Below, piece after piece: positions 2,451-34,039 of a stretch of 64,000 nucleotides of DNA (position 1 is its first letter; every line of letters begins with the position of its first letter). Source of the DNA: a virus. The stretch lies in the IMG/VR virus record IMGVR_UViG_3300040801_004793, positions 1-64,000 of that record; one strand, 5' to 3'. Position numbers and translations under genes: made by a program. The notes under the pieces are model-generated. The model had not been told where the DNA came from. It saw nothing but the letters and a program-made list of their open reading frames with translations, and searched no databases.

Positions 2451-2524
2451 GGGGAAATAGCTCAGTTGGATAGAGCACTCGCCTCCTAAGCGATAGGTCG
2501 TGGGTTCGAGTCCCGCTTTCCCCG
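2451..2524 (+). tRNA. tRNA-Arg(CCT)
   Basis: Cloverleaf: GGGGAAA/TTTCCCC acceptor, anticodon loop CTCCTAA, T-loop TTCGAGT; no encoded CCA. Confidence 0.93.
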
Positions 2525-2870
2525 TTGGTTTTTTTCGTGCCCTAATGAGATTCTCTCCCACAGCCACCGAGTTTATAAGTAGAGGCCTTCTTACTTACTA
2601 TGGGGGAAGGCCTCTTTTTATAGTCTCTCCGTACCGTTTGACGGAGGAACAATCCCTAAAGATCGCTACAAAGTTAGAAACGTCTTTGTCCCTAAACACC
2701 GAGTCTCTTGACCTTTGGAGGGACACCCCGTACTGGCTTCTTTGCGAATTGATTCAGCAGGCGATGGTTCAAAATAATGATTTTCGAGAAACCGTTCTGA
2801 GTATTTTAAGGGACTCAGAATTCTCGAATTTCTACAGTCATAGTTTTTGTAAATTACCTGATTCTTCATC

Positions 2871-3695
2871 ATGATTAAAACCATTTCCCTTTCTTCCGGC
2901 AAACTAGAATTCTATCTAAGAAGCTGGTGGGAGAGTCCAGAAGGCCAGTCTTCTATAGACGCCCTAGCGGAACATCTAATTCTCATGAGAGAGGATTATG
3001 ATTTCAATATCCGGCCCCAATTTATGGATCTATTTGGAAGAGCCCTCTCCGAAAAATATGATCCCTCTCACTTTTTACTAAGTGAAATACCTGCTCGGTG
3101 GGTTTTACAGGGAACCGCTAAAATAGGCGGTATCACCCGAGAGGTGCAGGCCGTCTTCAAGGGAACTAGACCCAAGAATCAGGAGTTTGTGACTCCCTAT
3201 CTAATTGGGGAATTGCCTCCCCTTTACCCAGCCTTCATTGTTAATAAGAAGGTGTTCTCCGATTTTGAGACTACCCTTTTTCCACGGCCTCTATCGAGAA
3301 AGCCTGTGAAGATGACAGTCAGTATACCGGATTCTTACCCGGTTAGTACGGAGGTACCGTACTTCTTCTTTCAGTGGCTCTATCGAATAGCTGTCGAAGA
3401 AAGCTCAGAGACCGTAGCTGAGAAAGATGGGGTTAATACCTTCTACTCTCAATTAGAAGAAGTGGGGGAAATTAGAACCACTCAATATAAGAAAAGAGGG
3501 GGGCTAAAGGCTGAAATCATCGAAGGGGGTCGGTATAGTCAAAGAAAAATTACCCCTTTTAGTCGGATTCACGATCAAGAAAAATTATTGGATACGGGAC
3601 ATAGGCCAGCCTTTATCGAAAAGAGAATACTGGAAAACCCGTATAAGCCCTCAAAGCCGGTGTCTATTGAGGATCTAGAATCTATTTGGGAGTAG
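2871..3695 (+). CDS. hypothetical protein
   Basis: 274-aa ORF, ATGA-coupled to the upstream ORF 2500..2874. Confidence 0.7.
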   Translation: MIKTISLSSGKLEFYLRSWWESPEGQSSIDALAEHLILMREDYDFNIRPQFMDLFGRALSEKYDPSHFLLSEIPARWVLQGTAKIGGITREVQAVFKGTRPKNQEFVTPYLIGELPPLYPAFIVNKKVFSDFETTLFPRPLSRKPVKMTVSIPDSYPVSTEVPYFFFQWLYRIAVEESSETVAEKDGVNTFYSQLEEVGEIRTTQYKKRGGLKAEIIEGGRYSQRKITPFSRIHDQEKLLDTGHRPAFIEKRILENPYKPSKPVSIEDLESIWE

Positions 3696-3699
3696 ATTC

Positions 3700-4251
3700 A
3701 TGTTTGACTTTCCCCAAGAAACTGTCCAAGAGATAGAACAGGACTGTTGGACACTTTGGAAGACCTTCAGCTCTCGCAGAAAAAAGAAATTTCTGACCCT
3801 AAGAGAAGAAGCCTCCAAGATAGGAAATCGCTCCTATAGAAACACCTGGCTTTCTTTTCGTGAAGAGTGTTTAAATAGAACTCCTCTCACGAAAACACAG
3901 GCCCTAGCTCTATTATCCCAACAAAGTCAGAAGCCCTGCAAATCAAATCTCTACGTAGAGATGCAACCTGAAAAATGGAGTAGATACCTAGTGCAAGAAG
4001 GTCTACTTAGCCATTTGGGTAGTATCTACTATAAAGATCAGAATGGCTTTTACTTCGTTTTTAGAGAGGGAAGTTTTCTAGAGATTTCACCGGAAAAACT
4101 TCGAATCTCTAAAATTTTTGAGTACTCTCTTCGAAGAGGGTATAAAAAAAGGCCTCTTTTTCTTACTACTGAGGAAGAAGAGTTGTGGGATCTTCTGTAC
4201 CGTGTTGTTTACCCTAGAGAAACTAATGAAACTGAATGTGATTTTGACTAA
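3700..4251 (+). CDS. hypothetical protein
   Basis: 183-aa ORF. Confidence 0.65.
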   Translation: MFDFPQETVQEIEQDCWTLWKTFSSRRKKKFLTLREEASKIGNRSYRNTWLSFREECLNRTPLTKTQALALLSQQSQKPCKSNLYVEMQPEKWSRYLVQEGLLSHLGSIYYKDQNGFYFVFREGSFLEISPEKLRISKIFEYSLRRGYKKRPLFLTTEEEELWDLLYRVVYPRETNETECDFD

Positions 4252-4552
4252 ATATTTCTTTGAAGTCGAAGCGTACCAGGTGGAGTGCTGGGGTGAAACG
4301 GCTCGAATCGTTTCCACAGAAGGACCTGTAACGGTTTCTTTCGTAAATAGAAATGATGACTTTCGGGATCTTGTAATAAAAGGCCCGAATACTAAAGAGT
4401 ACATTTTACCTGTCGGTTTTAGGGACAACTTCTGGGTAACAGAGGAAGGGATAGCCCATAGCATTATTAGCGTGACAGATCCCGACAGAGCTAGATCTCC
4501 ACACTGGAAATATGAAGACTGGTGGACTATAGACCTAGCTTCGGAGTTTTAA
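4226..4552 (+). CDS. hypothetical protein
   Basis: Likely start at the internal ATG (MKLNV...) of ORF 4118..4552. Confidence 0.55.
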   Translation: MKLNVILTKYFFEVEAYQVECWGETARIVSTEGPVTVSFVNRNDDFRDLVIKGPNTKEYILPVGFRDNFWVTEEGIAHSIISVTDPDRARSPHWKYEDWWTIDLASEF

Positions 4553-4556
4553 CTTC

Positions 4557-5294
4557 ATGATGCAGTATCAAATGCGCTTGATTCCAGGGGGCACCTTCCT
4601 GATGGGTTCTCCTGAGGACGAATTGCATCACTATGAAGAGGAAGGCCCTCAACACCAGGTCACTGTTCCCACTTTTTTTATGAGCCGTTACCCTGTCACT
4701 CAGGCTCAATATCAAAAGGTGATGGGTACGAATCCCGCCGCTAGATATCCTGATCGCTTTGTTGCTCTCAATAAACCCGTTATAGGGGTATCTTGGGTGG
4801 AGGCTGTAGAATTCTGTAAGCGTCTTTCCAACACTCAACAAACCTATCGCCTGCCAACGGAGGCCGAGTGGGAATATGCCTGTCGCGCTGGAACCACAAC
4901 CCCATTCCATTTCGGCCCCACAATTACGACCGACCTGGCGAACTACAATGGATCTTCGTCTTACGACTTTGGCCCTAAAGGGCAGTATAGAAGGCAGACA
5001 ACCGAAGTAGACAGCTTTCCGGCCAATGCTTTTGGTCTGTACGACATGCACGGTAACGTCCGTGAGTGGTGCCAAGATACTTGGCATTCCGACTATGAAG
5101 GAGCCCCTACAGACGGAAGAGCCTGGATAAGCGGTCTTGAAAAAAAAGTGATTCGAGGAGGGGGCTGGTCGTGTTTGTCTATGACCTGTAGATCAAGCTT
5201 CAGATTCTACGGGTTTCCGACTGAAAAGTACAGCTCTATCGGTTTTAGGGTAGTCTCGGATTACATCAGTCCTTTTCAAGCTTTTGGTTTTTAA
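4557..5294 (+). CDS. FGE-sulfatase (SUMF1-family) / CLec-fold protein, array copy 1
   Basis: IPGGTFLMGS, RLPTEAEWEYACRAG, NAFGLYDMHGNVREW, RGGGW...GFRV motifs; tail PFQAFGF. Confidence 0.95.
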   Translation: MMQYQMRLIPGGTFLMGSPEDELHHYEEEGPQHQVTVPTFFMSRYPVTQAQYQKVMGTNPAARYPDRFVALNKPVIGVSWVEAVEFCKRLSNTQQTYRLPTEAEWEYACRAGTTTPFHFGPTITTDLANYNGSSSYDFGPKGQYRRQTTEVDSFPANAFGLYDMHGNVREWCQDTWHSDYEGAPTDGRAWISGLEKKVIRGGGWSCLSMTCRSSFRFYGFPTEKYSSIGFRVVSDYISPFQAFGF

Positions 5295-5296
5295 TT

Positions 5297-6055
5297 ATGG
5301 ATCTCATTAAAATAACAAGAATTCCGGGTGGATCTTTTTTAATGGGGTCTGAAATATATGAGTATGAATCTCCTAAACACGAGGTCACTGTTCCCACTTT
5401 CTTTATGGGTATCTACCCCGTTACCCAGGCTCAGTATAAAACTGTAATGGGTCACAACCCCGCTACTAGGTACGATGTAGAGAACTTTGTTTCTCCCAAT
5501 AAACCCGTCGTAGGGGTAAGTTGGCATGATGCACAAGTCTTCTGTCAGCGTCTAACCGAGTACAGCGGCAAAAATTACCGCCTGCCTAGCGAGGCTGAAT
5601 GGGAATATGCTTGTCGGGCAGGCACCACAACGCCTTTCTACTTTGGCGAGACCATTACGTCTGAACTCGCCAACTACAATGCTGCCATCAACAGTTATAA
5701 TGGTAGCCCGAGAGGTGAATATCGCCGAACAACTACCTGTGTAGGTCAAGTGGGCGTCGCCAATGCCTTTGGTCTCTACGATATGCATGGCAATGTGTAC
5801 GACTGGTGCCAGGATACGTGGCACGACAGCTATGACGGTGCCCCCGCTGATGGTAGCGCTTGGACGAATACCGATAGCCAAACTTATACAAAAAGCAGTG
5901 AAAACAAAGTGATTCGAGGAGGCTCCTGGATGAGTGCGCCTAGCCTCTGTGAAGCAAATTACCGTTCTTACGAATGGAGTGCCGAGGAATCTGCTTTTAT
6001 TGGTTTTAGGGTAGCTTGTGATTACATTAGCCCTTTTCAAGCTTTTGGATTTTAA
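5297..6055 (+). CDS. FGE-sulfatase/CLec-fold protein, copy 2
   Basis: RLPSEAEWEYACRAG, GLYDMHGNV, RGGSW...GFRV; tail PFQAFGF. Confidence 0.95.
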   Translation: MDLIKITRIPGGSFLMGSEIYEYESPKHEVTVPTFFMGIYPVTQAQYKTVMGHNPATRYDVENFVSPNKPVVGVSWHDAQVFCQRLTEYSGKNYRLPSEAEWEYACRAGTTTPFYFGETITSELANYNAAINSYNGSPRGEYRRTTTCVGQVGVANAFGLYDMHGNVYDWCQDTWHDSYDGAPADGSAWTNTDSQTYTKSSENKVIRGGSWMSAPSLCEANYRSYEWSAEESAFIGFRVACDYISPFQAFGF

Positions 6056-6057
6056 AA

Positions 6058-6849
6058 ATGACTAATGATGATATTCCCAAAATGGTACTAATTCCAGGGG
6101 GAAGCTTCACTATGGGCTCTAATAAAAATTCATACGATACTCCTGAAGAAGAGCCTGCTCATAAAGTCAACGTTTCTTCTTTTCTTCTAGGAAAATATCT
6201 AGTTACTCAAGATCAGTACCTTAGCGTAATGCAATCTAACCCCGCTCATTTTAAAATAAATGGGGGCAATCGGCCAGTTGAAAACGTTTCTTGGGAAGAA
6301 GCTAAGATCTTCTGCTTGAATTTATCAGAAAAAACGGGTCAATCATTTCGTCTACCTAGCGAAGCAGAATGGGAATACGCCTGTCGTGCTGGTACCACAA
6401 CCCCCTTTTATTTTGGAAATACAATAAATACCGATCAAGTTAACTTTGACGGTTATTATCCTTTCTTTGATTCCTCTATTAACGAAACCCTCATACACTA
6501 TGGGGGAGAAAGACGGCTAGAAACTACCCCCGTAGGTTCTTTTCCCCCTAATTCTTTTGGTCTATATGATATGCACGGGAATTTATGGGAATGGTGTGAT
6601 GATGTTTGGCATCCAAATTATAAGGGTGCGCCTATAAAAGGAGGTCCTTGGCTTACTAAAGGTATTACAAATAAAAAGGTGGTACGAGGGGGCGGTTGGG
6701 ATTCATTGGGTATGGAATGTAGATCAGCCTCTCGTCGATATGCTCCTTGTACGTATAAGGGTCTTAATGTCGGAATTCGAGTAGCTTGTAGTCTGGACCC
6801 GCTCACTAGCTTTTTAAACCCGATCGCTTTCCAGTCTCTAGGATTTTAA
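6058..6849 (+). CDS. FGE-sulfatase/CLec-fold protein, copy 3
   Basis: Same motifs; tail AFQSLGF. Confidence 0.95.
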   Translation: MTNDDIPKMVLIPGGSFTMGSNKNSYDTPEEEPAHKVNVSSFLLGKYLVTQDQYLSVMQSNPAHFKINGGNRPVENVSWEEAKIFCLNLSEKTGQSFRLPSEAEWEYACRAGTTTPFYFGNTINTDQVNFDGYYPFFDSSINETLIHYGGERRLETTPVGSFPPNSFGLYDMHGNLWEWCDDVWHPNYKGAPIKGGPWLTKGITNKKVVRGGGWDSLGMECRSASRRYAPCTYKGLNVGIRVACSLDPLTSFLNPIAFQSLGF

Positions 6850-6851
6850 TA

Positions 6852-7592
6852 ATGACTAAGTTACCAAGAATGGCACTAATTCCAGGGGGATCTTTTATGA
6901 TGGGGTCTTCCAAAAATGAAGGAGACCCTAATTCAACCGAGTGTCCTCAACGTGAGGTAACCGTGCCGCAGTTCTGGATGGGGAAATATCCAGTCACCCA
7001 AGCCCAATATGAAGCGGTGATGGGTAAGAATCCCTCCAGGTTTTCTAAGAATGGAGCCAACCGTCCAGTAGAAAGAGTGGGTTGGAATAATGCTATGGCA
7101 TTTTGTCAGAAGCTCTCCCAACAAACTGGGCAGAAATATCGCCTCCCTAGCGAAGCTGAATGGGAATATGCTTGTAGAGCGGGAACGGAGACCCCATTTC
7201 ATTTTGGGGAGACTATCACCACTGATCTTGCTAACTATTGCGGCCTTTCAGAGTATAACGGCGGTCCCACGGGAAAGTTTTCAAAGGCCACGACCGAAGT
7301 AGGTAGTTTTCCAGCCAATGCCTTTGGGCTGTACGACATGCACGGCAATGTATGGGAGTGGTGTCTAGACCGTTGGCACGAGAGCTACTATGGAGCACCA
7401 ACTGACGGCAGTGCTTGGACAACAGGAGGTGATCGCTCCAGACGAATTCTGCGGGGCGGTTCGTGGTACGAATATCCTAAGCATTGCCGCTCGGCCTCAA
7501 GGGGGTCTACCTTGGAAGACACAGCTCTTAATAGCGTAGGTTTTCGGGTTGTTTGTCATTACACACCCCCTTTTAGCAGTTTTGGTTTTTAA
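6852..7592 (+). CDS. FGE-sulfatase/CLec-fold protein, copy 4
   Basis: Same motifs; tail PFSSFGF. Confidence 0.95.
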   Translation: MTKLPRMALIPGGSFMMGSSKNEGDPNSTECPQREVTVPQFWMGKYPVTQAQYEAVMGKNPSRFSKNGANRPVERVGWNNAMAFCQKLSQQTGQKYRLPSEAEWEYACRAGTETPFHFGETITTDLANYCGLSEYNGGPTGKFSKATTEVGSFPANAFGLYDMHGNVWEWCLDRWHESYYGAPTDGSAWTTGGDRSRRILRGGSWYEYPKHCRSASRGSTLEDTALNSVGFRVVCHYTPPFSSFGF

Positions 7593-7594
7593 AA

Positions 7595-8368
7595 ATGGTT
7601 ACTAAGGATATTCCTGAAATGGTATTTATCCCCGGAGGGTCTTTTATGATGGGGTCTTCCACGGATGAAAGAAAAAGTAGTTCAAGTGAGAGACCTCGAC
7701 ATAAAGTTACGATACCTGATTTTTACATGGGACGGTATCCAGTAACCCAAGCACAGTATAAATTTATAATGGGTAAAATTCCTTCTCCTTTTTCCCGTCA
7801 AGGAGATAATAAACCCGTAGACTTAGTAAGTTGGAATGAAGCCGTAGCATTTTGCCAAAAGCTCTCAGCGGTCACGTCTAAAACGTATAGATTACCTTCT
7901 GAAGCCGAGTGGGAATATGCCTGTAGAGCAGGAACTACTACGCCTTTTTACTTTGGGAAAACTATTACCACTGACCTTGCTAACTATTGCGGTTGCTCGA
8001 CCTATGGACAAGTGCCAAATAGTCTTTACCGAAAGGAAACTACTACAGTAGGCAGCTTTCCGCCCAATGCCTTTGGTCTTTACGACATGCATGGCAACGT
8101 ATGGGAGTGGTGCCAGGATGTGTGGCACGACAGTTATCAGGGAGCCCCCAGCGATGGCCGTGCTTGGACAGAAGGCAACACCTTCACGCAAGAGAGGCGA
8201 GTTTTACGTGGAGGCTCCTGGAGCGACATTCCGTGGTATTGCCGGTCCGCGTGTCGTTCCAGCAACTATGCCGACAACCGCTACATCCTCAATGGTTTTA
8301 GAGTAGCTTGTGATGACCCCAGCACTCTTCTGTTGCCCTTTACTCCCTTTATCTCCTTTGGATTCTAA
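7595..8368 (+). CDS. FGE-sulfatase/CLec-fold protein, copy 5 (DGR-type variable region)
   Basis: Same motifs; tail PFISFGF. Confidence 0.95.
   Translation: MVTKDIPEMVFIPGGSFMMGSSTDERKSSSSERPRHKVTIPDFYMGRYPVTQAQYKFIMGKIPSPFSRQGDNKPVDLVSWNEAVAFCQKLSAVTSKTYRLPSEAEWEYACRAGTTTPFYFGKTITTDLANYCGCSTYGQVPNSLYRKETTTVGSFPPNAFGLYDMHGNVWEWCQDVWHDSYQGAPSDGRAWTEGNTFTQERRVLRGGSWSDIPWYCRSACRSSNYADNRYILNGFRVACDDPSTLLLPFTPFISFGF
8213..8299 (+). repeat. DGR variable-region-like repeat (copy 5)
   Basis: 87-nt GGCTCCTGG...TGCCGGTCCGC...GGTTTT; differs from sister repeats mainly at codon positions 1-2 of NNC/NNT codons. Confidence 0.75.
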
Positions 8369-8419
8369 AAATATCCGCTTCTCGCTGAGATCTTGTAATA
8401 CTTGTTTTTGAGAAAAAAA

Positions 8420-9193
8420 ATGAAGCGCTTTACAGAACAACTTCATGGGTATATTGTGCCCCTGGAAATGATCCATATCCCCGCTGGCATCTTTCTCATG
8501 GGCTCTCCTGAAAAGGAAAAAGACCGATTTGGAGATGAAGGCCCTCAGCATGAGGTCATCGTCCCCACTTTTTTCATGGGGCGCTACCCCATCACCCAGG
8601 CCCAATATGAAGCGGTGATGGGCACCACCCCCGCCACGAAATATGAGGCTGATCGCTTTGTCGCTCTCAATAAACCCGTTGTGGGGGTGAGCTGGAAGGA
8701 TGCCGTTACCTTTTGCACCGCCCTGGCCCAGCGCACGGGTCGCCCCTATCGCTTACCTTCTGAAGCAGAATGGGAATATGCTTGCCGCGCTGGGACTACA
8801 ACGCCTTTCTACTTTGGGAGCACCCTCACTACCGAGGTTGCCAATTACGACGGTAACTACACCTATGGTGAGGGTCCGACAGGTGAATTTCGCAACGCCC
8901 TCACCTCTGTAGACCACTTTGAGGTTGCTAACTCCTTTGGCCTCTCAGACCTGCACGGCAATATCTATGAGTGGTGTCAGGATACGTGGCACGACAACTA
9001 TGAGGGGGCACCGACCGATGGCTCGGCTTGGGTAGACGGGGGCTATTCAGACCAAAAGGTTATCCGTGGTGGCTCCTGGAACAACATTCCGAGGGATTGC
9101 CGGTCCGCGTATCGCCTCAACCTCAACGCCGACAACCGCTACAACGACTTCGGTTTTCGTGTTTGTTGTGCTGCCCCTAGCAATCTTTTGTAG
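8420..9193 (+). CDS. FGE-sulfatase/CLec-fold protein, copy 6 (most host-like, lacks FGF tail)
   Basis: ATG at 8420; FTEQL..VPLEMIHIPAG N-terminus; GC-richer; ends AAPSNLL-TAG. Confidence 0.93.
   Translation: MKRFTEQLHGYIVPLEMIHIPAGIFLMGSPEKEKDRFGDEGPQHEVIVPTFFMGRYPITQAQYEAVMGTTPATKYEADRFVALNKPVVGVSWKDAVTFCTALAQRTGRPYRLPSEAEWEYACRAGTTTPFYFGSTLTTEVANYDGNYTYGEGPTGEFRNALTSVDHFEVANSFGLSDLHGNIYEWCQDTWHDNYEGAPTDGSAWVDGGYSDQKVIRGGSWNNIPRDCRSAYRLNLNADNRYNDFGFRVCCAAPSNLL
9071..9157 (+). repeat. DGR variable-region-like repeat (copy 6)
   Basis: 87 nt, retains six AAC codons. Confidence 0.75.
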
Positions 9194-9219
9194 TCCTTCG
9201 TCTCCTTTGAATTCTAAAA

Positions 9220-9966
9220 ATGATTAGTAAATGTATTCCTGAAATGGTATTTATTCCAGGGGGATCTTTTATGATGGGAGTCTCCACAAATGAAAGAGGG
9301 GAAAGTGAGTCTGAGAAACCTCAACATAAAGTTACTGTACCCGCATTTTACATGGGACGATATCCGGTCACCCAAGCCCAGTATAAATTCATAATGGGTG
9401 AAAACCCTTCTCATTTTTCTCATCAAGGAGATAATAAGCCTGTAGAAAGAGTGAGTTGGAATCAAGCCACGGCATTTTGTCAGAGGCTCTCAGAGGTCAC
9501 GTCTAAAAAATATAGATTACCCTCCGAAGCGGAATGGGAATATGCTTGTCGGGGCGGGACGACAACCCCCTTTCACTTTGGGGAAACTATCACCTCTGAC
9601 CTTGCCAACTATGACGGTAGCGTGATCTACGGAGAAGAGCCACGAAGTACTTACCGAAAGGAAACCACTGAGGTCGGTAGTTTTCCACCCAATGGTTGGG
9701 GCCTTTATGACATGCATGGTAACGTGTGGGAATGGTGTGATGATGAATGGCATGGTAATTACCAGGGAGCTCCCATAAACGGATCACCTTGGTTAGAAGA
9801 CGATGATAGAGGTAGAAGAGTTCTACGTGGCGGCTCCTGGGACTACGGCCCGAGGCTTTGCCGGTCCGCGTTTCGCTACTTCGTCTATGCCGACCAAAGC
9901 TGGGACGATACCGGTTTTAGAGTAGCCTGTGATTACAAACTTCCTTTTCAAGCTTTTGGATTCTAA
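9220..9966 (+). CDS. FGE-sulfatase/CLec-fold protein, copy 7
   Basis: Same motifs; tail PFQAFGF. Confidence 0.95.
   Translation: MISKCIPEMVFIPGGSFMMGVSTNERGESESEKPQHKVTVPAFYMGRYPVTQAQYKFIMGENPSHFSHQGDNKPVERVSWNQATAFCQRLSEVTSKKYRLPSEAEWEYACRGGTTTPFHFGETITSDLANYDGSVIYGEEPRSTYRKETTEVGSFPPNGWGLYDMHGNVWEWCDDEWHGNYQGAPINGSPWLEDDDRGRRVLRGGSWDYGPRLCRSAFRYFVYADQSWDDTGFRVACDYKLPFQAFGF
9832..9918 (+). repeat. DGR variable-region-like repeat (copy 7)
   Basis: 87 nt, aligns without gaps to the other three. Confidence 0.7.
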
Positions 9967-9968
9967 AA

Positions 9969-10715
9969 ATGACTAATAATGATATTCCTGAAATGGTATT
10001 TATTCCAGGAGGATCTTTTATGATGGGGTCTTCCAAAAATGAAAGAGACGGAAGTTCGTCTGAGAAACCTCAACATAAAGTTACTGTACCCGCATTTTAT
10101 ATGGGACAGAGCCCGGTCACCCAGAACCAGTATCAAGCAGTGATGGGTAAAAACCCTTCTTATTTTTCTCATCGGGGAGATAATAAACCCGTAGAATTAG
10201 TAAGTTGGAACGACGCCATAACATTTTGCCGAAAGCTCTCCCAACAGACAGGTCGGAAATATCGCTTACCTTCTGAAGCAGAATGGGAGTACGCTTGCCG
10301 AGCTGGAACCACAACACCTTTTTATTTTGGGGAAAGCATCACCACTGACCTTGCCAACTGTGCCGGTATCCCAGGCAATGGCGTCATGGCGGCAAAGGAT
10401 AATTACAGACAGAAAACCACTGAGGTCGGTAGTTTTCCACCCAATGCCTTTGGTCTCTACGATATGCACGGAAATGTATGGGAATGGTGTGAGGATGTGT
10501 GGCACAGCAACTATGAGGGGGCTCCTACAGACGGTAGTGCCTGGACAGAAGGCAACAACCAAGAGCGAGTTTTACGTGGAGGCTCCTGGAACGACATTAC
10601 GGGGATTTGCCGGTCCGCATTTCGCTACAGCAGCTATGCCGTCTGCCGCGATGTCGTCGGCGGTTTTAGAGTAGCTTGTGATTACACACCTCCTTTTAGC
10701 AATTTTGGATTCTAA
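9969..10715 (+). CDS. FGE-sulfatase/CLec-fold protein, copy 8
   Basis: Same motifs; tail PFSNFGF. Confidence 0.95.
   Translation: MTNNDIPEMVFIPGGSFMMGSSKNERDGSSSEKPQHKVTVPAFYMGQSPVTQNQYQAVMGKNPSYFSHRGDNKPVELVSWNDAITFCRKLSQQTGRKYRLPSEAEWEYACRAGTTTPFYFGESITTDLANCAGIPGNGVMAAKDNYRQKTTEVGSFPPNAFGLYDMHGNVWEWCEDVWHSNYEGAPTDGSAWTEGNNQERVLRGGSWNDITGICRSAFRYSSYAVCRDVVGGFRVACDYTPPFSNFGF
10581..10667 (+). repeat. DGR variable-region-like repeat (copy 8)
   Basis: 87 nt, aligns without gaps to the other three. Confidence 0.75.
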
Positions 10716-10720
10716 AAATA

Positions 10721-11428
10721 ATGACTTCTCTGATTGAGGTAGTAACAATTCCTTCAGGTACTTTCCTAGGTAAAGACTCTAATCAAATTTACGTACCTGG
10801 TTTTTATCTTTCTAAATATCTGATAACACGAAAAATCTGGAATTACGTAACACAGTTACCAGAAGTAAACACTCCTTTAGTTTCGACTGTAGATATTCCC
10901 GAGCTTTACCAGAATCCCGTACGAGGGGTGTCTTACTGGGATGTTTTAGAGTTTTGTAATCGAATCTCCAGTAAGACAGATCAGTATAGATTACCTACTG
11001 AAATTGAATGGGAATATGCTTGTAGAGCTGGCACTACAACAGCTTTCTACTTTGGAGGTATAGGAGACGCAAGTATAGAAAAATTTAATCATCTCGATTT
11101 GAAACTCTCTGCTACCTCTCACTTTCAAAGCCATAATAGTATTCATCCACATCAAGTTAATCGTGTTAATTATTACCCTCCAAATCCCTGGGGTTTACAT
11201 GATATGCATGGTAATTTGTGGGAGTGGTGTAAAAATAGTAAAGAAAATAAAACGGAACAAGAATCAGATAACTGGCCTGCAATTCTCAAAGGGGGATCTT
11301 GGAGAAGTCCCGCAAGGTCTTGTCAATCCAGTTCAATAATTTCTTTCCCTAAAAATTACAGGAACACTCACGTTGGATTTAGAGTCGTTCTAGAGAGACC
11401 CACTCAATTTGGTGCTTTTGGATTTTAA
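10721..11428 (+). CDS. divergent FGE-sulfatase/CLec-fold protein, copy 9
   Basis: RLPTEIEWEYACRAG, NPWGLHDMHGNLWEW, KGGSW...GFRV; tail QFGAFGF. Confidence 0.9.
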   Translation: MTSLIEVVTIPSGTFLGKDSNQIYVPGFYLSKYLITRKIWNYVTQLPEVNTPLVSTVDIPELYQNPVRGVSYWDVLEFCNRISSKTDQYRLPTEIEWEYACRAGTTTAFYFGGIGDASIEKFNHLDLKLSATSHFQSHNSIHPHQVNRVNYYPPNPWGLHDMHGNLWEWCKNSKENKTEQESDNWPAILKGGSWRSPARSCQSSSIISFPKNYRNTHVGFRVVLERPTQFGAFGF

Positions 11429-11433
11429 AAAAA

Positions 11434-11646
11434 ATGACAAAAAAGCGTAAAACGAAAAAAGAATTAGAACAAGAAAACGAGAAGCTTAAAGAAAAAATAG
11501 AAAAAAATCAAAGAGTAGTAGAAGCTGCTAAGGGAGAAGTTGAGGTTTTGAGGGGAACATTACAAAACTTTGTGGCCCCAGAAAACAGAGAGGCTTACCA
11601 CACTCTAGCGGATAACATTAATTCTATACTCGATGAGACTAAGTAG
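11434..11646 (+). CDS. small coiled-coil protein
   Basis: 70-aa ORF, K/E-rich heptads. Confidence 0.6.
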   Translation: MTKKRKTKKELEQENEKLKEKIEKNQRVVEAAKGEVEVLRGTLQNFVAPENREAYHTLADNINSILDETK

Positions 11647-11697
11647 TTTTTTTTCGTTGGTGAACCACGGGGGTATAAAAATACCCCCTTTCTTAAA

Positions 11698-12381
11698 ATG
11701 AAAATTTTTTTAAAAAGCTCTCACTCAAAGGAGTTTTGTAAAATTCCATCGGGAACTTTTCTCCTATTTGAAAAGCAACTTTTTATTCCCGAATTTTACC
11801 TCGCTCTTAATCCAATCTCGATTTTTGATTTTCACTTAATTTTTGATATTCCCTTGAGTCCAAAATATCAGGAGTCTAATGGATTTCTTGCAAAAGTAAC
11901 ACCTTACATTGGAATAAGACCTTTTGAAGCAGAAAAAATTTGCAGCTTTTTAAATTTTCAAACGGGACTTAAAAAATTTAGAGTACCCACAGAAAACGAA
12001 TGGGAATATGCTTGCCGAGCCGGTAGCACTAGCCCTTTTTATTTTGGTGATGAAGACCACCCCGCTGTTGAGGATCTTGTAAATTGCGAGAGTAATTATA
12101 AACTTCCCTGGTCTTTTCTTGCTTTTACCGAAGAGCGTCATCCCTACGGTCTTAGAGGTATGCACGGAAACGTACGAGAGATATGTCTCAGTCGATACCA
12201 CAAATCGCCTGCAAAAAAAGGGTATTGCTGTCGTGGAGGAGATTACACATCTAAAAAAAATATGTGCTACTCTGCATCAAGGCTGCCTTGTCTCGACTTT
12301 GGAAGAAAAGGGAAGCAGGGATTTAGACCCCTATTAGAAAATATAGATCTATTGAATACAGGAAACCCTTCAATTCTGTAG
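11698..12381 (+). CDS. divergent FGE-sulfatase/CLec-fold protein, copy 10
   Basis: RVPTENEWEYACRAG, GLRGMHGNVRE, RGG...GFRP; no FGF tail. Confidence 0.85.
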   Translation: MKIFLKSSHSKEFCKIPSGTFLLFEKQLFIPEFYLALNPISIFDFHLIFDIPLSPKYQESNGFLAKVTPYIGIRPFEAEKICSFLNFQTGLKKFRVPTENEWEYACRAGSTSPFYFGDEDHPAVEDLVNCESNYKLPWSFLAFTEERHPYGLRGMHGNVREICLSRYHKSPAKKGYCCRGGDYTSKKNMCYSASRLPCLDFGRKGKQGFRPLLENIDLLNTGNPSIL

Positions 12382-12480: not shown

Positions 12481-12481
12481 T

Positions 12482-12554
12482 GGCTCCTTAGCTCAGTGGA
12501 TAGAGCACCGGTCTTCTAAACCGTAGGTCATAGGTTCGAATCCTATAGGGGCCG
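12482..12554 (+). tRNA. tRNA-Arg(TCT)
   Basis: GGCTCCT/AGGGGCC acceptor, loop CTTCTAA, T-loop TTCGAAT; no CCA. Confidence 0.93.
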
Positions 12555-12586
12555 TTTCGAGTTGTTTTCTTTTAAGGAATTCTGAA

Positions 12587-13234
12587 ATGACTATCTCAAA
12601 CCAAGTTTACCAAGCTATTGTCCGATACTACGCTTCTTTAAAAAGCAACTATTCTTTAGTAAGTCGCTTACAAGAATTAAATTTAATTGAAGAAGACCTT
12701 GAACTTCAAGCCACTATCTGGGGGCTAGCAGATCACGATCTCTTTTTAGAAGACCTTCCCCAGAATACAGAAGAGAGCACCTCAGTTTTCCAGCAAAAAC
12801 TAGAGATCTTAAGATCTATTGAAAAACTTCCCTGGTTTCAAGTTGGCTCTATATGTATGAACGAGAGTTTTTTAACTCCGGACATATTAAAAATAAAACT
12901 TCTCAAAGACATTTTTCTGAAAGATCCATTTAACTTGAATCCCTTAAGAGATCTTCTAGATTTAGCAAAAGAAGGCACTTACCTGCAAAAACGATATCGC
13001 CTTGCTTTTGTTAATGAAGTAGAGTCCTACGCTAAGTTAAACCCTAATGTAGGGGATTACTTATTAACGAAAGGAAACATTCTCTATTGCCGTCAGGAAG
13101 ATAAAATGTTTTATCTTACTGAGAAGTCTGAGTCTAACGATTCCGTCTTTAGCCGAACAAGTGAAGGAGAGAAAATACAGGTCTGCAATTTGGAAGAAAT
13201 TCAGATTCCCGTCATTAGCTTTGTCTCAAGGTAA
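12587..13234 (+). CDS. hypothetical protein
   Basis: 215-aa ORF. Confidence 0.65.
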   Translation: MTISNQVYQAIVRYYASLKSNYSLVSRLQELNLIEEDLELQATIWGLADHDLFLEDLPQNTEESTSVFQQKLEILRSIEKLPWFQVGSICMNESFLTPDILKIKLLKDIFLKDPFNLNPLRDLLDLAKEGTYLQKRYRLAFVNEVESYAKLNPNVGDYLLTKGNILYCRQEDKMFYLTEKSESNDSVFSRTSEGEKIQVCNLEEIQIPVISFVSR

Positions 13235-13239
13235 CAATC

Positions 13240-13791
13240 ATGAAAACTGAAACTCTGCTAGAAAAACTTAGACTTTTTGCCCAAACTAGTTCAGTCTTTA
13301 TCCGGTGCTACCCCATCACTAGAACGATACAACTCATTTTTAGTTCTAGTAAAGAAAAAGAAAGAGCCGCAGTAAACGTAAATGGACATTCCGTTCATTT
13401 TCTTTCGTTTCTCGGTCTTCAGAAGACTGGTCCTGATGATAGCTGGACTGTTCCTAAAACATATGACTTTAAAATGATATGTGTTTTAGTATCAAGTTAC
13501 CTGTTTGATCAAGAACTGCAAGTAGAAACTCAATTTGCACCGGATAGCCACTCTATTACATGGAATTGGGTTGACTGCACTATTTACTTCAGAATAAAGT
13601 ACAACTTGCGAGTCATCCAATACGACCCTTTTGAAAAGACATTGACCGTAAAGAAAGACGATGTTTTACTAGAAAAGTGTCATCGGTCCTGGACAAATAA
13701 CGACTTTATTCAAGATATCGTTAGCTTGCTTAAGTCAGGTGAAAATCTCCAAGAACACGGTTGGATTACTAAGGAGAAAGAAAATGTCTAA
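13240..13791 (+). CDS. hypothetical protein (probable paralog of the next gene)
   Basis: 183 aa; shares SYL..DC.IYF..K and GW end motifs with 13784..14356. Confidence 0.6.
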   Translation: MKTETLLEKLRLFAQTSSVFIRCYPITRTIQLIFSSSKEKERAAVNVNGHSVHFLSFLGLQKTGPDDSWTVPKTYDFKMICVLVSSYLFDQELQVETQFAPDSHSITWNWVDCTIYFRIKYNLRVIQYDPFEKTLTVKKDDVLLEKCHRSWTNNDFIQDIVSLLKSGENLQEHGWITKEKENV

Positions 13792-14356
13792 CATTTATGA
13801 CACCTTGAAGGCTTTAAACCAGAAAGCTCTAAAAGCGGAGGTCTATATAGACTTCTTTCCAGAAAGAAAATTTGTCCGAGTGTATTATGGGAGTGAAGAA
13901 ATTAGAGAGAAAAGCCTGATTGGTAAAAAGTGTCCTCTTAGTGTGTTGGGGGCTTGTTATTGCATCTCAGAAGAAGGTTATACTATTCCCCCAAACCTTG
14001 ATGCTCTCATCATACTCCATGCTTTCTCCGGCTACTTGATAGATTCGGGCCTGACGGTTATTATAAATAACCGAAAGTACGAACGCCTCCACAAAATGTC
14101 AGATTTCGACTGCCTTCTGTACTTTCAAGAAAAATTTGGTTTTTCAGAGTTAACTTTTTCTGGTGCTAACTCTCATAATCCTGACTTTGGAATTTACACT
14201 CTAAAGTTAGGTGAGCAGACTCTTTATCACTCGCTAGATATTCGAACTAGTATTGAAGTGATAGAGGCTCAAGTCCTTTCTACTCTTCGGCAAAAATCGA
14301 AAGACCAGTCTGCTTTACAAGCTTTACTTGCTGATGGTTGGACGTTAGAGCAATAA
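13784..14356 (+). CDS. hypothetical protein
   Basis: Likely start MSNIY at 13784, downstream of AAGGAG. Confidence 0.6.
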   Translation: MSNIYDTLKALNQKALKAEVYIDFFPERKFVRVYYGSEEIREKSLIGKKCPLSVLGACYCISEEGYTIPPNLDALIILHAFSGYLIDSGLTVIINNRKYERLHKMSDFDCLLYFQEKFGFSELTFSGANSHNPDFGIYTLKLGEQTLYHSLDIRTSIEVIEAQVLSTLRQKSKDQSALQALLADGWTLEQ

Positions 14357-15323: not shown

Positions 15324-16099
15324 AGAGAAATAGAAAGCCCGACTTTTGGGACTACTTTACTTCTGTCAATATCTACTTCTTTTTTGTTTCGTACCTTTCT
15401 CTCTTTGTGTATTTTATAGATTGGGCTTTTTGGTCTAAACCCGGTCTAAACATCCTTTTTCTGGTACTTCCCCTGATTCAAACCAATCTGACCTTATTTC
15501 TGTTGTTTATTTCTAGCCTAAGAGACTAGAGATTCATTGTGTACTTTTCTCCAAAGGCAATTAAAGCTTTTCTAGGTCCTGTAAAAGCACTGCGAAGTAT
15601 TCTTAGAGTATTAGCAATTTTTACTCTAATTTCTTGTGGCGCTGGATTGCTTGTTTTTGTATTCACAAAAAACAATTTGCTCTTGTTCTTATCTGGAACC
15701 TTCCTCTTTCAAGTAGGAATTCTTTACCCCCCGGTAGAAATTCTGTATTGTCTACTGTCCGATGTAAATTATCTCCTGATTCGAGAGAGAAGACGCAATC
15801 GTCATATTGACTCACCAGGACTGTAGTTAAAATAGGCAAAAAGATGAGATTCAACCCCCGTCTGACAACCCGACAAATGGCTAGATACGCAATAATTCTA
15901 GCTTTCTTTAACTTTGTGAAACTCTTTGCAAGAGTAGCCTTTGTTCTAGTGTTTCCTCTCCGATTCTTGCCCATCCTTCTTTTTGGATGGGAGATTTTCT
16001 CCTTTTCGGTCTTTACTAATCTAATGATGTCTGCCATTTATTTCTGGTGGATTTCGGACCTAGTTATTGACCAAGTACACAAAAAAGTCAGAGTTTAAA

Positions 16100-16909
16100 A
16101 ACATGATTCCTTTTCATTTCCTACTTGAAGATCGACGCTGGTACGTACAAAAGATTTTGGGATACCAAGATCTTTCTCCTGAAGATCTCGACCTTTTCTG
16201 CAAAGCCTTTGTAATGGAACAGTTTGATTACACAGGCCTTTACGGTTTTACGGGAAAGCTAGCTTACACCGAATGGCTAGATAGATGGTCTTTGGTGACC
16301 GAGCTTGCAGAAAGCGATGTAGAATTTGTCAAATTTTGTATTCAGTCTTTTCGAGAAAAAAGACTAGGAGAGATTTACACGTATCTGTCCAGAGACTATG
16401 ATTTTGACGAAGATAGGTTTAACAGTGAGTATAGACCCTTTACGCAGTGGGATACTGGGAATCTATACCATCCCAGAATGATTCCCCCTTCGTTAAAAAA
16501 GGGAATTTCTCAAAATAACAAGATCTCTGTGTTAAGAGGTAGTTACGCTCAACTGCCTCTGATCTACAACAGCAAAAGATACCGACCGATTCTAAGTGGA
16601 GAACACATTCTACATAACTACCTTAACCGATTTCAACCTCAAATTTTTGGGAGTGAAAAGATAGTAGTTTCTCTTGAAAAGAAGAGACCCCATCCCTCGG
16701 CTTGTGATGGCTGGATTCCCGTCTTGGAGGATGGAAAACTGGTTGTAAACATTGTTTCTGTCAGAATAAACAGCCCAACTCAAATCGAGAATTTCGGAAG
16801 ATTTGTTTTTCCGAAACCCTTTGATTTTTACGAAAGAAAGTACGATTCTTTTCGTACATCTTTTGAGACATCTTGGCAAAAAGCTGTTCAATACGTAGGT
16901 GGTTTCTAG
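16100..16909 (+). CDS. hypothetical protein
   Basis: ORF 16067..16909; start probably near MIPFHF. Confidence 0.6.
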   Translation, partial: NMIPFHFLLEDRRWYVQKILGYQDLSPEDLDLFCKAFVMEQFDYTGLYGFTGKLAYTEWLDRWSLVTELAESDVEFVKFCIQSFREKRLGEIYTYLSRDYDFDEDRFNSEYRPFTQWDTGNLYHPRMIPPSLKKGISQNNKISVLRGSYAQLPLIYNSKRYRPILSGEHILHNYLNRFQPQIFGSEKIVVSLEKKRPHPSACDGWIPVLEDGKLVVNIVSVRINSPTQIENFGRFVFPKPFDFYERKYDSFRTSFETSWQKAVQYVGGF

Positions 16910-32039: not shown

Positions 32040-32122
32040 AGAGGCAATTTAGTTTCTCTACTTAGGGGGCCTATCCTCTTTAGGCCTCGTTCGTGTACAC
32101 GTCTAAAACACAAAAACACATC

Positions 32123-32542
32123 ATGTCTAACCAAAACAACAACTCCGCTGTCCAGAACCTCGCTGAAGCTCTGGCTAACCTGATCTCTACTACCGCTCCG
32201 GCTAACGGCAATGTTGTGCCTACTGTTGTTCCGCCCACGCCCAGCTACGCGGTGAGCCAAACTGCGGCGGTGGCTCCTGTAGCAACTGTTGTGTTGCAAG
32301 GCACCGTTAAGCAGCCATCTCTGAGGACGTTCCAGAGCTGGCAGCATCTAGGCTACACCTTGGGCCGTATCAAGGACGAGACCTTCGGTACGGAAATTCG
32401 CGCCGACGAAGCTTCCTTAAGCATCAACGGCCAAGCTCCTCAGCCTCTAAGCCTGACGAGCCTCCTGCCCGAAGCCGTTAACGCGGAGGGTATCACCTCT
32501 ATCCGCCTAACCTACAGTGTCACCTCTGGCACCAACGGTTAG
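32123..32542 (+). CDS. putative ubiquitin-like (beta-grasp) modifier with low-complexity N-terminal extension
   Basis: Ends in strand + SGTNG-stop (C-terminal Gly, compare the GTKG end of PRTRC protein C); lies directly before JAB, E2 and E1 genes. Confidence 0.65.
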   Translation: MSNQNNNSAVQNLAEALANLISTTAPANGNVVPTVVPPTPSYAVSQTAAVAPVATVVLQGTVKQPSLRTFQSWQHLGYTLGRIKDETFGTEIRADEASLSINGQAPQPLSLTSLLPEAVNAEGITSIRLTYSVTSGTNG

Positions 32543-32609
32543 TAGTTCATAGGGCTGGGGCTCCCCTCTAAGAGCCCCACTGTTTAGGTTACGTCAAAAT
32601 TTGACAGTC

Positions 32610-32642
32610 AGGAGGGGCCTCAAAACCCCTCCTTTTCTTTTT
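32610..32642 (+). terminator. rho-independent terminator between Ubl and JAB genes
   Basis: AGGAGGGG-CCTCAAAA-CCCCTCCT followed by TTTCTTTTT. Confidence 0.65.
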
Positions 32643-32670
32643 GTCAACAACACTACTCACTAAACTGATA

Positions 32671-34038
32671 ATGACACAGCAAGAAGAAGCAAAAATCACT
32701 CCGAAGATTACATCCTCTGGATCTTTCATTCGAAGAGGCGATGAAATTCAACCCCTGATTCAGTACTTTGGGGGCCGTTACTTTTGTCCAATGCAGCATC
32801 CTGTATTTCTGGGCTACACGGAGATGACGGACCAGGATCGCCACATGACTAATGAAGAGTTTTTGACTTTTCAAGATCTCAACTTCTGGAATCTTCAACC
32901 AAGTCCAGTAGATCCTTCCAAAGTAATTACTTCTACGGGAACTTTTCAAAAAGTCCCTAAAGAAGATTGGATCAAGACGATCAAATTATTTGCTCACTTT
33001 TGTAGAAATGATGGATTCCCTAATGAGTTAGAAGTGGGCTTAATTTTGGCTCTTCACAATGAGAGTCAGACCTTAAGGCTTCTTGTACCCAAACAGTCTG
33101 TGACAAAAGCCAGTGTTAACTGGACAATTTCCGACATTAAATCTGATACCCAAGTAATGGACTTGGATGGAAACCTCATCGTAATGTCGGATTATACTCC
33201 CGTAGGTGTTTTTCATAGCCATAACACTTTCGGGGCCTTCCCTTCTTCAGTAGATAACACTTGTGAGGTAAAAGACACTGCGGGAAAGATTATTCCCACG
33301 GGTTTCCATATGATTCTGGGAAACTTCAAAAACTACGAAAACTACGAGTTTGATGAACCCACTTTTGATACTTACAGTAGCTTCTCTCATCTGGGAGTTC
33401 GCCACCAAGTAACAAGTGAAAAAACCTTTGAGTTCTTTGTGAGTGATGACTTTTCAGTGGAGGAGTACCAACAGAATACCTTTAGCACAAACATTCTAAC
33501 AATCATCACCAGGTCAACTGTTTGGTCGGGCAAAGTTTATACAGGTAAGTCTTATGCGACGAGGCCTTACTCGGGATCTGCCAATTACGTAAACTACCGC
33601 CCGTTTAGAAATCCTGAGCATGAGCAAGCGTACAACAGGATTAGTAAAAAGCACAGAAAAGCTTCTGCTGCTAATCAAGCCTGGAGAACTTCTACAGTAC
33701 CCGCTCTTATCAGGACGGATGCAAAAGAAGCTCTGATTGAGTACGCTATTAGTTGCATGTATGACATCTACGCCACGCTCGTAGATGACTTGAGTGCCGA
33801 CCCTGTGGACTTAATGAAAGAGTTCGAAGCTTGGCATCAGGAAAGTCTTGGTTCAAACAATTCTCTAGAAATGCTCTCGTCTGAGATGTATACTCCTTTA
33901 CCATCTGAGATGTATACCCCTTTGGCAAGTGATGACCCTCTATCTAATGAAGACTACTGGACATCTTCTATTGATGGAGGAGGTCTGGTAGACAACTCAG
34001 CGGATGTAGACAATCCTTTTTACTATCGAGGAAACTAA
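32671..34038 (+). CDS. JAB/MPN-domain metallopeptidase (PRTRC protein A-like)
   Basis: Upstream Glu (NELEV), VPKQ.V..ASV, HSHNTFGAFPSSVD (HxH..S..D) motif. Confidence 0.8.
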   Translation: MTQQEEAKITPKITSSGSFIRRGDEIQPLIQYFGGRYFCPMQHPVFLGYTEMTDQDRHMTNEEFLTFQDLNFWNLQPSPVDPSKVITSTGTFQKVPKEDWIKTIKLFAHFCRNDGFPNELEVGLILALHNESQTLRLLVPKQSVTKASVNWTISDIKSDTQVMDLDGNLIVMSDYTPVGVFHSHNTFGAFPSSVDNTCEVKDTAGKIIPTGFHMILGNFKNYENYEFDEPTFDTYSSFSHLGVRHQVTSEKTFEFFVSDDFSVEEYQQNTFSTNILTIITRSTVWSGKVYTGKSYATRPYSGSANYVNYRPFRNPEHEQAYNRISKKHRKASAANQAWRTSTVPALIRTDAKEALIEYAISCMYDIYATLVDDLSADPVDLMKEFEAWHQESLGSNNSLEMLSSEMYTPLPSEMYTPLASDDPLSNEDYWTSSIDGGGLVDNSADVDNPFYYRGN

Positions 34039-34039
34039 A

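Follow-up and report, generated by a model that had tools for sequence, protein, structure and literature searches.

What would a virus do with ten adjoining genes for small proteins of the formylglycine-generating enzyme (FGE) type, and why do eight of these proteins end in the same short peptide? The questions are raised by an array at positions 4557-12381, on the + strand, of the IMG/VR virus record IMGVR_UViG_3300040801_004793, a complete genome of 121,016 bp with direct terminal repeats; its first 64 kb (positions 1 to 64,000) make up the stretch analysed here, which is called the window. The answer preferred in the present study, with a rough probability of 0.4, is that the shared C-terminal peptide, F-x-x-[F/L]-G-F, serves as a docking peptide common to a library of binders with a C-type lectin (CLec) fold. 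The evidence concerns the rarity of this tail, the pattern of its codons and the way in which it is attached to the fold; a second line of evidence, which bears on the origin of the binders, is the presence in four copies of a variable repeat (VR) of the type made by diversity-generating retroelements (DGRs).

All ten genes, designated g1 to g10 and encoding proteins of 227-263 aa, passed the cut-off of the Pfam family PF03781 (FGE-sulfatase), with 54.6-211.5 bits against a cut-off of 23.3 and E-values from 2.1e-62 to 1.6e-14, and the whole 121,016-bp genome contains no other FGE-sulfatase match. The genes had originally been described as stand-alone, with nine of them back to back and gaps of mostly 2-5 nt, and this description is accurate: the gaps from g1 to g9 are 2, 2, 2, 2, 33, 26, 2 and 5 nt, and 269 nt separate g9 from g10. 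The FGE domain begins at residue 2-8 in eight of the ten copies, in keeping with the proposed lack of a signal peptide. The genes and the elements lying between them are as follows (E-values refer to PF03781).

4557-5294, + strand: g1, 245 aa, E 2.2e-57, tail PFQAFGF (5271-5291)
5297-6055, + strand: g2, 252 aa, E 1.9e-48, tail PFQAFGF (6032-6052)
6058-6849, + strand: g3, 263 aa, E 4.9e-53, long linker, tail AFQSLGF (6826-6846)
6852-7592, + strand: g4, 246 aa, E 1.3e-58, tail PFSSFGF (7569-7589)
7595-8368, + strand: g5, 257 aa, DGR-type VR, 8-codon insert, tail PFISFGF (8345-8365)
8402-9193, + strand: g6, 263 aa from TTG (alternative ATG at 8420), the most template-like, AAC-rich VR, end PSNLL-TAG, tail-less
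9194-9217, + strand: remnant of the g6 tail, SFVSFEF-TAA, with the invariant G changed to E and P to S
9220-9966, + strand: g7, 248 aa, DGR-type VR, tail PFQAFGF (9943-9963); the copy that was modelled
9969-10715, + strand: g8, 248 aa, E 2.1e-62, DGR-type VR, tail PFSNFGF (10692-10712)
10721-11428, + strand: g9, 235 aa, E 3.5e-34, divergent, GC content 0.376, tail QFGAFGF (11405-11425)
11434-11646, + strand: orf70, 70 aa, lysine-rich and coiled-coil-like, starting 5 nt past g9; the last gene before the hairpin
11669-11688, + strand: terminator-like hairpin with a T run, from a consensus scan only
11698-12381, + strand: g10, 227 aa, E 1.6e-14, degenerate FGE domain (profile positions 80-252 only), tail-less

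The product of orf70 gave only weak coiled-coil matches below the Pfam cut-off and weak PHROGs matches. Probably, g1-g9 and orf70 form one transcription unit that ends at 11669-11688, and g10 is separate from it.

The eight tails, each followed by TAA, were re-read and are identical to those in the original prediction; the two other proteins end in AAPSNLL (g6) and TGNPSIL (g10). The remnant past the g6 stop, which the original prediction had missed, is cut off by the TAG, so the tail of g6 is not made, and it is this untranslated remnant that has lost the invariant G. Read-through of the TAG was considered and rejected, as the ten tRNA genes of the window include none with a CUA anticodon. 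In the tails that are translated, the glycine codon is GGT in two copies and GGA in six, and the last phenylalanine codon is TTT in five and TTC in three, which puts figures to the synonymous variation reported earlier. Among the four conserved codons of the motif, four of the five variable columns are third positions and the sole replacement is a conservative one (F to L in g3); in the two middle codons, all six columns vary. The very divergent g9 has also kept its tail, as had been pointed out, despite an identity of 36-37% to g1 and g7 and the drift of its GC content to 0.376. Such a pattern supports the view that the tail is a constant appendage, presumably kept by selection on the peptide. 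The contrary view, that the tail is a neutral relic, which arose once by read-through or frame change and was then copied, unselected, by duplication or gene conversion, would account for the nearly identical tail DNA of g1, g2 and g7 and for all copies fitting one clade. It is most improbable: four tail positions are fixed in eight copies of genes that outside the tail are 33-62% identical to the first copy, the substitutions follow the codon structure, the only untranslated copy has decayed, and the tail DNA of g9 differs from that of its neighbour at many sites, which makes recent gene conversion of the tail unlikely.

The tail is rare within the phage. Among the 413 stop-to-stop frames of at least 60 aa in the genome, an [FL]GF end is found in these eight only, and F..[FL]GF occurs ten times in frames of at least 80 aa, eight of the occurrences being the C-termini of the array. 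As to other genomes, the original prediction had regarded a tail common in unrelated host FGE proteins as evidence against itself, and it had proposed a search for FGE genes ending in FGF in other cyanophages; both questions were pursued and the tail was not encountered. It is absent from all 116 nearest foreign homologues, which end a median of 8 (maximum 14) residues past the conserved GFRV (one of them in PGF), from the FGE-like frames of 79 IMG/VR loci (0/79) and from the stand-alone homologue encoded by Microcystis phage MaMV-CH01 (C-terminus GFRVVCVG). A word-index search with residues 205-248 of g7 gave four candidates, of which the query itself alone passed. DNA pattern scans, all of which demanded GGTTTT for the G-F of GFRV, returned seven stretches in viral contigs with the pattern GGTTTTMGNGTN-N{24,54}-TTYGGNTTYTAA, each with an upstream frame open over at most 20 residues; a stricter pattern with CCNTTY returned one stretch, lacking an FGE frame, in metagenome contigs and none in genome contigs, and all of these are regarded as chance matches. 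A profile of the last 46 residues, run against 1.84 billion representatives (one per 50% cluster, E up to 0.001), had 9340 matches, and in the best 150 proteins the tail was present at one of 502 GFRV-like sites, that one being g9; the power of this search is limited, since the best 150 are dominated by proteins with several VR-like stretches, and g1-g8 themselves are not listed among them. Full-text literature searches turned up nothing published on FGE arrays of cyanophages or on the tail; supplementary lists may hold C-terminal variants of short CLec targets.

The same codons have also to be considered as a part of the junction with the next gene. The tail codons could be kept as one piece of a duplicated stop-start junction that couples translation, made up of a Shine-Dalgarno-like GGA at a distance of 8-10 nt from the next ATG and, following it, TAA, AA and that ATG, and the peptide would then have no partner. 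The junction sequence GRWTTYTAAAA is found seven times in the array, against 2.4 occurrences expected in the whole window, the next start codon lies within 2-5 nt for six of the eight tails, and GGA(A/T)T also precedes the ATG of other phage genes by ~8-10 nt, e.g., those at 12587, 21142 and 22767. Nevertheless, this explanation appears unlikely: the conserved F at position -6 and F/L at -3 precede the next ATG by 15-25 nt, the variation of the middle codons at all six columns means that there is no continuous conserved RNA element, GGT stands in place of GGA in g1 and g4, and g5 retains its tail although 33-51 nt separate it from the next start. Telling as well is the remnant behind g6, which has an intact TTCTAAAAATG junction and yet has lost the G codon (now GAA).

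The three-dimensional fold was studied on g7. Its AlphaFold 2 model, with a predicted local distance difference test score (pLDDT) of 93.6, was matched by Foldseek to PvdO (1.2e-24), human FGE (4.3e-20) and TvpA (2y3c; 2.1e-19, root-mean-square deviation 2.6). Over the final eight residues of the model, the mean pLDDT is 63, compared with 90-98 for most ten-residue blocks of the fold, and the tail holds a short helix (242-245). Six copies have a linker of four residues from the last strand to the motif, and g3 and g5 have one of 11-12; the linker sequence is unconserved, and no fold residues are conserved specifically in the tail-bearing copies. An intramolecular role, in which the tail would be an aromatic hook beside the variable surface, a lid over it or a cap replacing the host-type end (CSGAART), can draw on the point of exit of the tail, which leaves the fold right after the strand following the variable segment and hence near the binding face, on the short helix (pLDDT ~63), and on the median of 8 residues that host homologues carry past GFRV, which reduces the net extension to ~5 residues. 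The variation of the linker length between 4 and 12 residues, the lack of any fold residue conserved together with the tail, the fall of model confidence at the tail and the homologues of hosts and of other phages, which fold in the absence of a tail, all make such a role improbable.

Taken together, the rarity of the peptide, the selection at the codon level and the form of the linker and the model argue for a short linear motif on a tether, with a contact outside the domain that bears it. On the docking reading, the phage would carry, in this array, a library of ten small modules with the FGE-type CLec fold, cytoplasmic, non-enzymatic and able to bind ligands, each showing its own variable surface between GGSW and GFRV. 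F-x-x-[F/L]-G-F-COOH would be a short linear docking motif on a flexible linker, 4-12 residues beyond the fold, and would deliver every binder with its bound ligand to one common partner; the favoured purpose would be to neutralise or re-route host defence proteins, or to shield phage antigens from the homologous sensors of the host. What we infer here is that ligands are bound, that the tail docks on a partner, and what the array is for. The part of the original prediction that described intracellular binders with a variable surface agrees with proteins that are stand-alone, cytoplasmic and likely non-enzymatic; its other part, the docking to a common partner, is suggested by the form of the motif.

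Several points weigh against the docking reading. The form of the motif is the only ground for docking and no partner was found; the case comes from one genome, and the searches yielded no relatives of either the phage or its tail. The junction GRWTTYTAAAA + ATG overlaps the last tail codons, seven of its ten matches in the window lie in the array and the tail G codon sits where a ribosome-binding site of the next gene would be expected, so part of the G-F conservation may act on RNA. The short helix in the model indicates that the tail may not be fully disordered and may pack on the domain or beside the variable surface. Furthermore, g6 and g10 persist as open, tail-less genes, and the searches for the tail elsewhere had their bounds, namely the best 150 proteins and 50% cluster representatives of a profile search that did not list g1-g8, and the GGTTTT to which the DNA scans were tied.

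If the tail does dock, a host machine that takes hydrophobic peptide ends, e.g., the pocket of the Clp protease, is a possible partner and tentatively comes first. Clp partners dock on ClpP via the [LIV]-G-[FL] loop of an AAA+ unfoldase, and the tail had been likened to this loop in the original prediction. The likeness does not hold: seven of the eight tails end in FGF, outside [LIV]-G-[FL], and one in LGF, the tripeptide is the free C-terminus of a CLec domain, and there is no AAA+ domain to provide the context of an unfoldase. The tail might, more simply, be a degradation tag only, its non-polar C-terminus causing rapid, time-limiting turnover by host proteases with no adaptor logic; the idea of the ClpP pocket is a more specific form of this proposal. 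The tail is strongly non-polar, with three aromatic residues in six, and a non-polar C-terminus is known to destabilise E. coli proteins. However, a tag of this kind would need neither the precise F-x-x-F-G-F spacing nor the invariant Gly, the tripeptide lies at a free end, not in an unfoldase loop, and no ClpP of the phage's own was found at E up to 1, which together make a tag alone quite unlikely.

The docking reading was also considered with partners encoded by the phage. No match to PDZ_2, PDZ_6 or the beta-clamp N-domain was found in phage proteins at E up to 1, either, and F..[FL]GF stands at no other phage protein end. Complex prediction for g7 with the products of ORFs 4226-4552 (108 aa) and 11434-11646 (70 aa) gave a score of 0.00 against a mark of 0.32, a result that counts neither way. 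By analogy with known adaptor families, the cluster for ubiquitin-like conjugation that the phage itself encodes (32-36 kb), and in which no substrate receptor is visible, might use the binders as substrate receptors; this is a doubtful candidate. Its components are the following.

32093-36054, in the + strand half: ubiquitin-like cluster, with a candidate ubiquitin-like protein (Ubl) ending in SGTNG
32641-34038: JAB peptidase, E 9.1e-05, below the Pfam cut-off
34040-35065: E2-like candidate, no match in the scans made here
35116-36054: PRTRC-like ThiF/E1

The GC content of the cluster (0.458 and 0.440 in two 2-kb segments) is above that of the phage. The tail as a substrate of the E1 was rejected, as the cluster has its own Ubl ending in G. 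A part of the virion would be a partner of about the same doubtful standing as the cluster, the original prediction having named capsid decoration as an alternative, and something else altogether takes up the rest of the docking reading. The boldest version, a hard-wired 'antibody library', would consist of host immune-sensor domains, with tips possibly still rewritten by a host DGR, coupled via F-x-x-F-G-F to one effector hub, either the phage ubiquitin-like machinery with the binders as interchangeable substrate receptors, comparable to poxvirus ankyrin/F-box families, or the host Clp protease with the binders as targeted-degradation adaptors; as a whole it is not probable.

The variable surface itself is a 26-residue stretch from GGSW to GFRV that differs in each copy. 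The segment described earlier as hypervariable is indeed so, and beyond mere variability it can be assigned more exactly to the VRs of DGR type. In the 31 VR codons (RGGSW to GF) of g5-g8, positions 1, 2 and 3 vary in 16, 13 and 9 codons, respectively; in the other 200 aligned codons they vary in 88, 77 and 153 (third position, Fisher p 4e-7). Synonymous differences are present in three of 12 codons for conserved residues inside the VR and in 60 of 81 outside (p 0.0015). This scarcity of third-position and synonymous changes indicates that the segments of g5-g8 share a nucleotide template much younger than the remainder of these genes.

A scan for the invariant scaffold of the VR, with one genome per species, found three stretches in two cyanobacterial metagenome-assembled genomes (MAGs), and the same pattern had no matches in viral contigs. 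A contig of the Leptolyngbyaceae MAG encodes a reverse transcriptase (RT), an all-AAC template repeat (TR), CLec-only targets of 281 and 273 aa and a 1088-aa sensor ending in a CLec domain; ORFs of 588 and 348 aa next to the sensor on this contig are candidates, by eye only, for a trypsin-like peptidase and a MoxR-like ATPase. The regions of this locus are L093:119-2438 and L095:800-7729, with the short CLec-only targets at L093:1593-2438 and L095:6908-7729. In the two MAGs, F..FGF-stop gave three and five matches, versus seven and none in the reversed control, and none of them closes a frame longer than 45 aa. Compared with the MAG template, the VRs behave as follows.

MAG, its own three VRs: 13-19 of 27 A sites changed, 0 of 69 non-A sites changed
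Phage, 8207-10680, + strand, VRs of g5-g8: adenine-mutagenesis stamp, 11-18 of 27 A sites changed, 9-13 of 69 non-A sites changed (p 5e-3 to 2e-5)
Phage, VRs of g1, g2 and g4: 18-20 of 27 A sites changed, 27-36 of 69 non-A sites changed, no such relation

Variable proteins of DGRs are recognised by a 3' VR in a CLec fold with adenine-biased changes, and in the array this description applies to g5-g8 only, relative to a related, non-cognate template. The MAG template is of the right family yet not the donor, since g5-g8 still differ from it at non-A sites, at which the MAG's own VRs are unchanged. In the complete 121-kb record, RVT_1 had no match at E up to 1, and the search for a template repeat found no further VR copy in the phage outside the ten genes. 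On the sequence evidence, the VRs of g5-g8 are inherited from, or were written by, a cyanobacterial DGR of the family found in the Leptolyngbyaceae MAG; the route into the phage would be either a host DGR writing into phage genes or the uptake of finished repeats. The 8-codon insert of g5 (PSTLL...), which lies between the fold and the tail, has a 17-nt core (8317-8333) that agrees at 17/17 nt with the 3' flank of the MAG TR and is unlike the 3' flank of the MAG VRs, and this is a hint that the insert may be a template-derived event, from cDNA or from the TR. A degenerate copy of the g5-type insert is present in g6 (9170-9193), where it introduced the TAG that removes the tail, and may have the same derivation. 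The tail as a DGR cis element was rejected: g1-g4 and g9 bear no recent DGR stamp and yet keep the peptide, and it has been lost from g6, which resembles the template most closely.

The enzymatic features of the family have been lost. The active-site pair C-x4-C of human FGE, which we take to be Cys336 and Cys341 (a numbering consistent with PDB titles), has a Y at its first Cys in the alignment with g7, and this column holds a Cys in g1 only; a catalytic enzyme of the SUMF1 type is ruled out by the lack of the first Cys in nine of the ten copies. The WSCLSMTC stretch of g1 (5172-5189) is alone in having cysteines at both columns, and the first of them is a VR position, so that its presence is possibly due to chance. 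NCBIfam equivalogs scanned with g1, g7, g9 and g10 stayed below their cut-offs (PvdO 162/500, PorK/GldK 122-129/350 and EgtB 87/360 bits; SenA and OvoA likewise). Most likely, the array proteins are non-enzymatic binders, stand-alone and cytoplasmic, with one variable surface each.

The closest relatives of these proteins are cyanobacterial. The 120 best homologues of g8 comprise four copies from the phage itself and 116 foreign proteins, the latter at 54-67% identity; the named sources of the foreign proteins are almost all cyanobacteria, mainly filamentous (Okeania, Microcoleus, Dolichospermum, Aphanizomenon, Trichodesmium and Calothrix among the genera), and many others are metagenome proteins. 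Some of the foreign homologues bear Trypsin_2, TIR_2, Pkinase or Trypco1 domains in front, and all 116 contain GGSW-x3-P-x2-CRSA-x-R-x(10-12)-GFRV with scrambled x positions, which is the look of a DGR VR. Kaur et al. 2020 (PMC7159879) and Dore et al. 2024 (PMC10907252) describe FGE/CLec domains as modules that are diversified by DGRs and form the C-terminal part of conflict-system proteins in multicellular bacteria, as sensors or in a 'neutralising' capacity; in the proteins presented there, the partner domains are always N-terminal of the CLec module, and short CLec-only targets occur beside long ones. A tree of 80 rows, with ten array copies, 39 cyanobacterial domains and 31 viral-contig domains (every third of 116 matches), placed g1, g2 and g6 in one starred group and g3, g4, g5, g7 and g8 in another, both inside the cyanobacterial radiation, with g9 and g10 as long branches. 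The tree constrained to keep g1-g8 together has a log-likelihood 10.2 above that of the free tree and is not rejected (p-AU 0.62). A single capture followed by tandem duplication in the phage would fit these data, and the clade is not proven by them. As part of the preferred explanation, the modules may, tentatively, descend from DGR-diversified sensor domains of filamentous cyanobacteria, of a kind also found as short CLec-only targets.

Two further groups of sequences were encountered in these searches. Four IMG/VR viral contigs (L020, L062, L063 and L078) have two or three FGE-like genes close together, and the products end in GFRVVCD(N/D) directly past the fold, a phage-type ending shared with the CDY of the array, and are tail-less. 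Five public proteins of 97-153 aa (P0131, P0134, P0144, P0156 and P0163) consist only of two or three tandem RGGSW...GFRV segments, the rest of the fold being absent.

The virus that carries the array probably infects a filamentous cyanobacterium: its head protein is nearest to those of Pseudanabaena phages (31% identity), and a microbial mat metagenome, probably the sample of origin, was the sole listed holder of its DNA in a look-up of sequencing runs (share of words 0.28), in which no RNA holder appeared. The contigs of two RNA runs of the mat sample (depth ~3) touch 33-36-bp conserved stretches with mismatches only and are uninformative on expression or VR variation. The + strand half of the genome encodes a family A DNA polymerase, a DnaB-like helicase, a class II ribonucleotide reductase, a ThyX with an intein and a GGDEF-EAL protein, and the array lies within this block of replication and accessory genes; the genes for the portal, the major head protein, the terminase and the tail fibres are on the - strand, between 61 and 108 kb, so the original placement of the array among early or accessory genes rather than tail genes was right. 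The GC content of g1-g8 is 0.41-0.53 versus 0.393 for the genome, and g9 (0.376) and g10 (0.377) are phage-like. Genes for tRNA-Arg(CCT) (2451-2524) and tRNA-Arg(TCT) (12481-12555) flank the GC-richer block with the array, and the GFR(V) motifs of the array use many AGA/AGG codons. The ThyX gene at 37265-39001 is split by an intein bearing NUMOD4 and HNH endonuclease domains, and the GGDEF-EAL protein (54090-56057) is full-length.

The surroundings of the array have few relatives. The flanking genes at 2871-3695 and 12587-13234 had none in IMG/VR, and megablast of the array against cultured phages gave one 65-bp match only. Pfam gave no match for seven unnamed ORFs adjacent to the array (2500-4552 and 12587-14356) or for 16067-16909, and the ORF at 14628-15323 matches PolyA_pol. 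Likewise, PHROGs gave no match for the ORF designated orfX or for 2871-3695, 3700-4251, 12587-13234, 13240-13791, 13739-14356 and 16067-16909.

How does the array compare with systems already described? Cyanobacterial short CLec-only DGR targets (273-281 aa) have the same fold, size and GGSW...CRSA.R...GFRV segment as the phage copies, the cyanobacterial homologues are 54-67% identical to them, and the adenine-biased stamp is also seen in g5-g8. The host targets, however, end a median of 8 residues past GFRV with no F-x-x-F-G-F and stand beside an RT and a TR, whereas the phage has ten tandem copies with the extra tail, and no RT or template was found in it. The FGE-like proteins of the Microcystis phages of the Ma-LMM01/MaMV group (phrog_18508, which carries the misleading label 'kinase', and BFVD A0A7F1) are stand-alone, ~250-266 aa long and 55% identical, with a VR-like segment; there are one to four matching places per genome, the MaMV-CH01 protein is the tail-less one described above, and no published function was found for these proteins in the literature searched. 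Treponema denticola TvpA (2Y3C) shares the FGE-type CLec fold with a C-terminal DGR variable region (phmmer E 2.8e-26), and is a single target with a cognate RT and template; the array proteins lack an anchoring domain and have the C-terminal peptide only. Mtd of Bordetella phage BPP-1 is also a single DGR target with a cognate RT and template, and it is anchored in the tail fibre by its N-terminal domains.

Among C-terminal peptides of conflict systems, the FxSxx-COOH precursors of host ternary systems, as outlined by Kaur et al. 2020 (PMC7159879), have F at -5 and S at -3 and are encoded beside a metallopeptidase and a radical-SAM/SPASM enzyme. An assignment of the tail to these precursors was rejected: its F residues are at -6, -3 and -1, four copies had no such NCBIfam match, and the flanking ORFs scanned include no such genes. 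What was already known, then, are stand-alone FGE-fold genes in cyanophages, from databases, and DGR-type CLec domains in cyanobacterial conflict systems, from print; the new features are the ten-gene tandem array of full domains and the private C-terminal motif in eight of them. The original statement that no system of this architecture has been described stands for the size of the array and for the tail, but not for stand-alone, tail-less FGE genes, which Microcystis phages already possess.

DGR-diversified lectin-fold domains have been proposed in print (PMC10907252 and PMC7159879) as antigen sensors of multicellular cyanobacteria, a role that is not known to have been put to an experimental test. 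Ten stand-alone copies of such a sensor domain in a virus suggest that phages turn a recognition module of the host against the host or hide from it, and four of the copies were stamped by a host-type retroelement that was not found in the virus. The tail offers an experimental handle on the partner, and hence on the purpose of the whole family.

Other families of paralogous binders with a constant docking motif are known: the poxvirus ankyrin/PRANC proteins, with an F-box-like motif that docks on SCF, C-terminal clamp-binding peptides, HbYX tails and the IGF loops of ClpX. The array is like them in logic, in that variable recognition is combined with a constant hydrophobic motif leading to one hub; this is an analogy only, and no sequence relation is claimed. 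If the partner proved to be a protease or a ubiquitin-like ligase, the array would be a bacterial-virus counterpart of the adaptor families of eukaryotic viruses and a possible scaffold for programmable binders.

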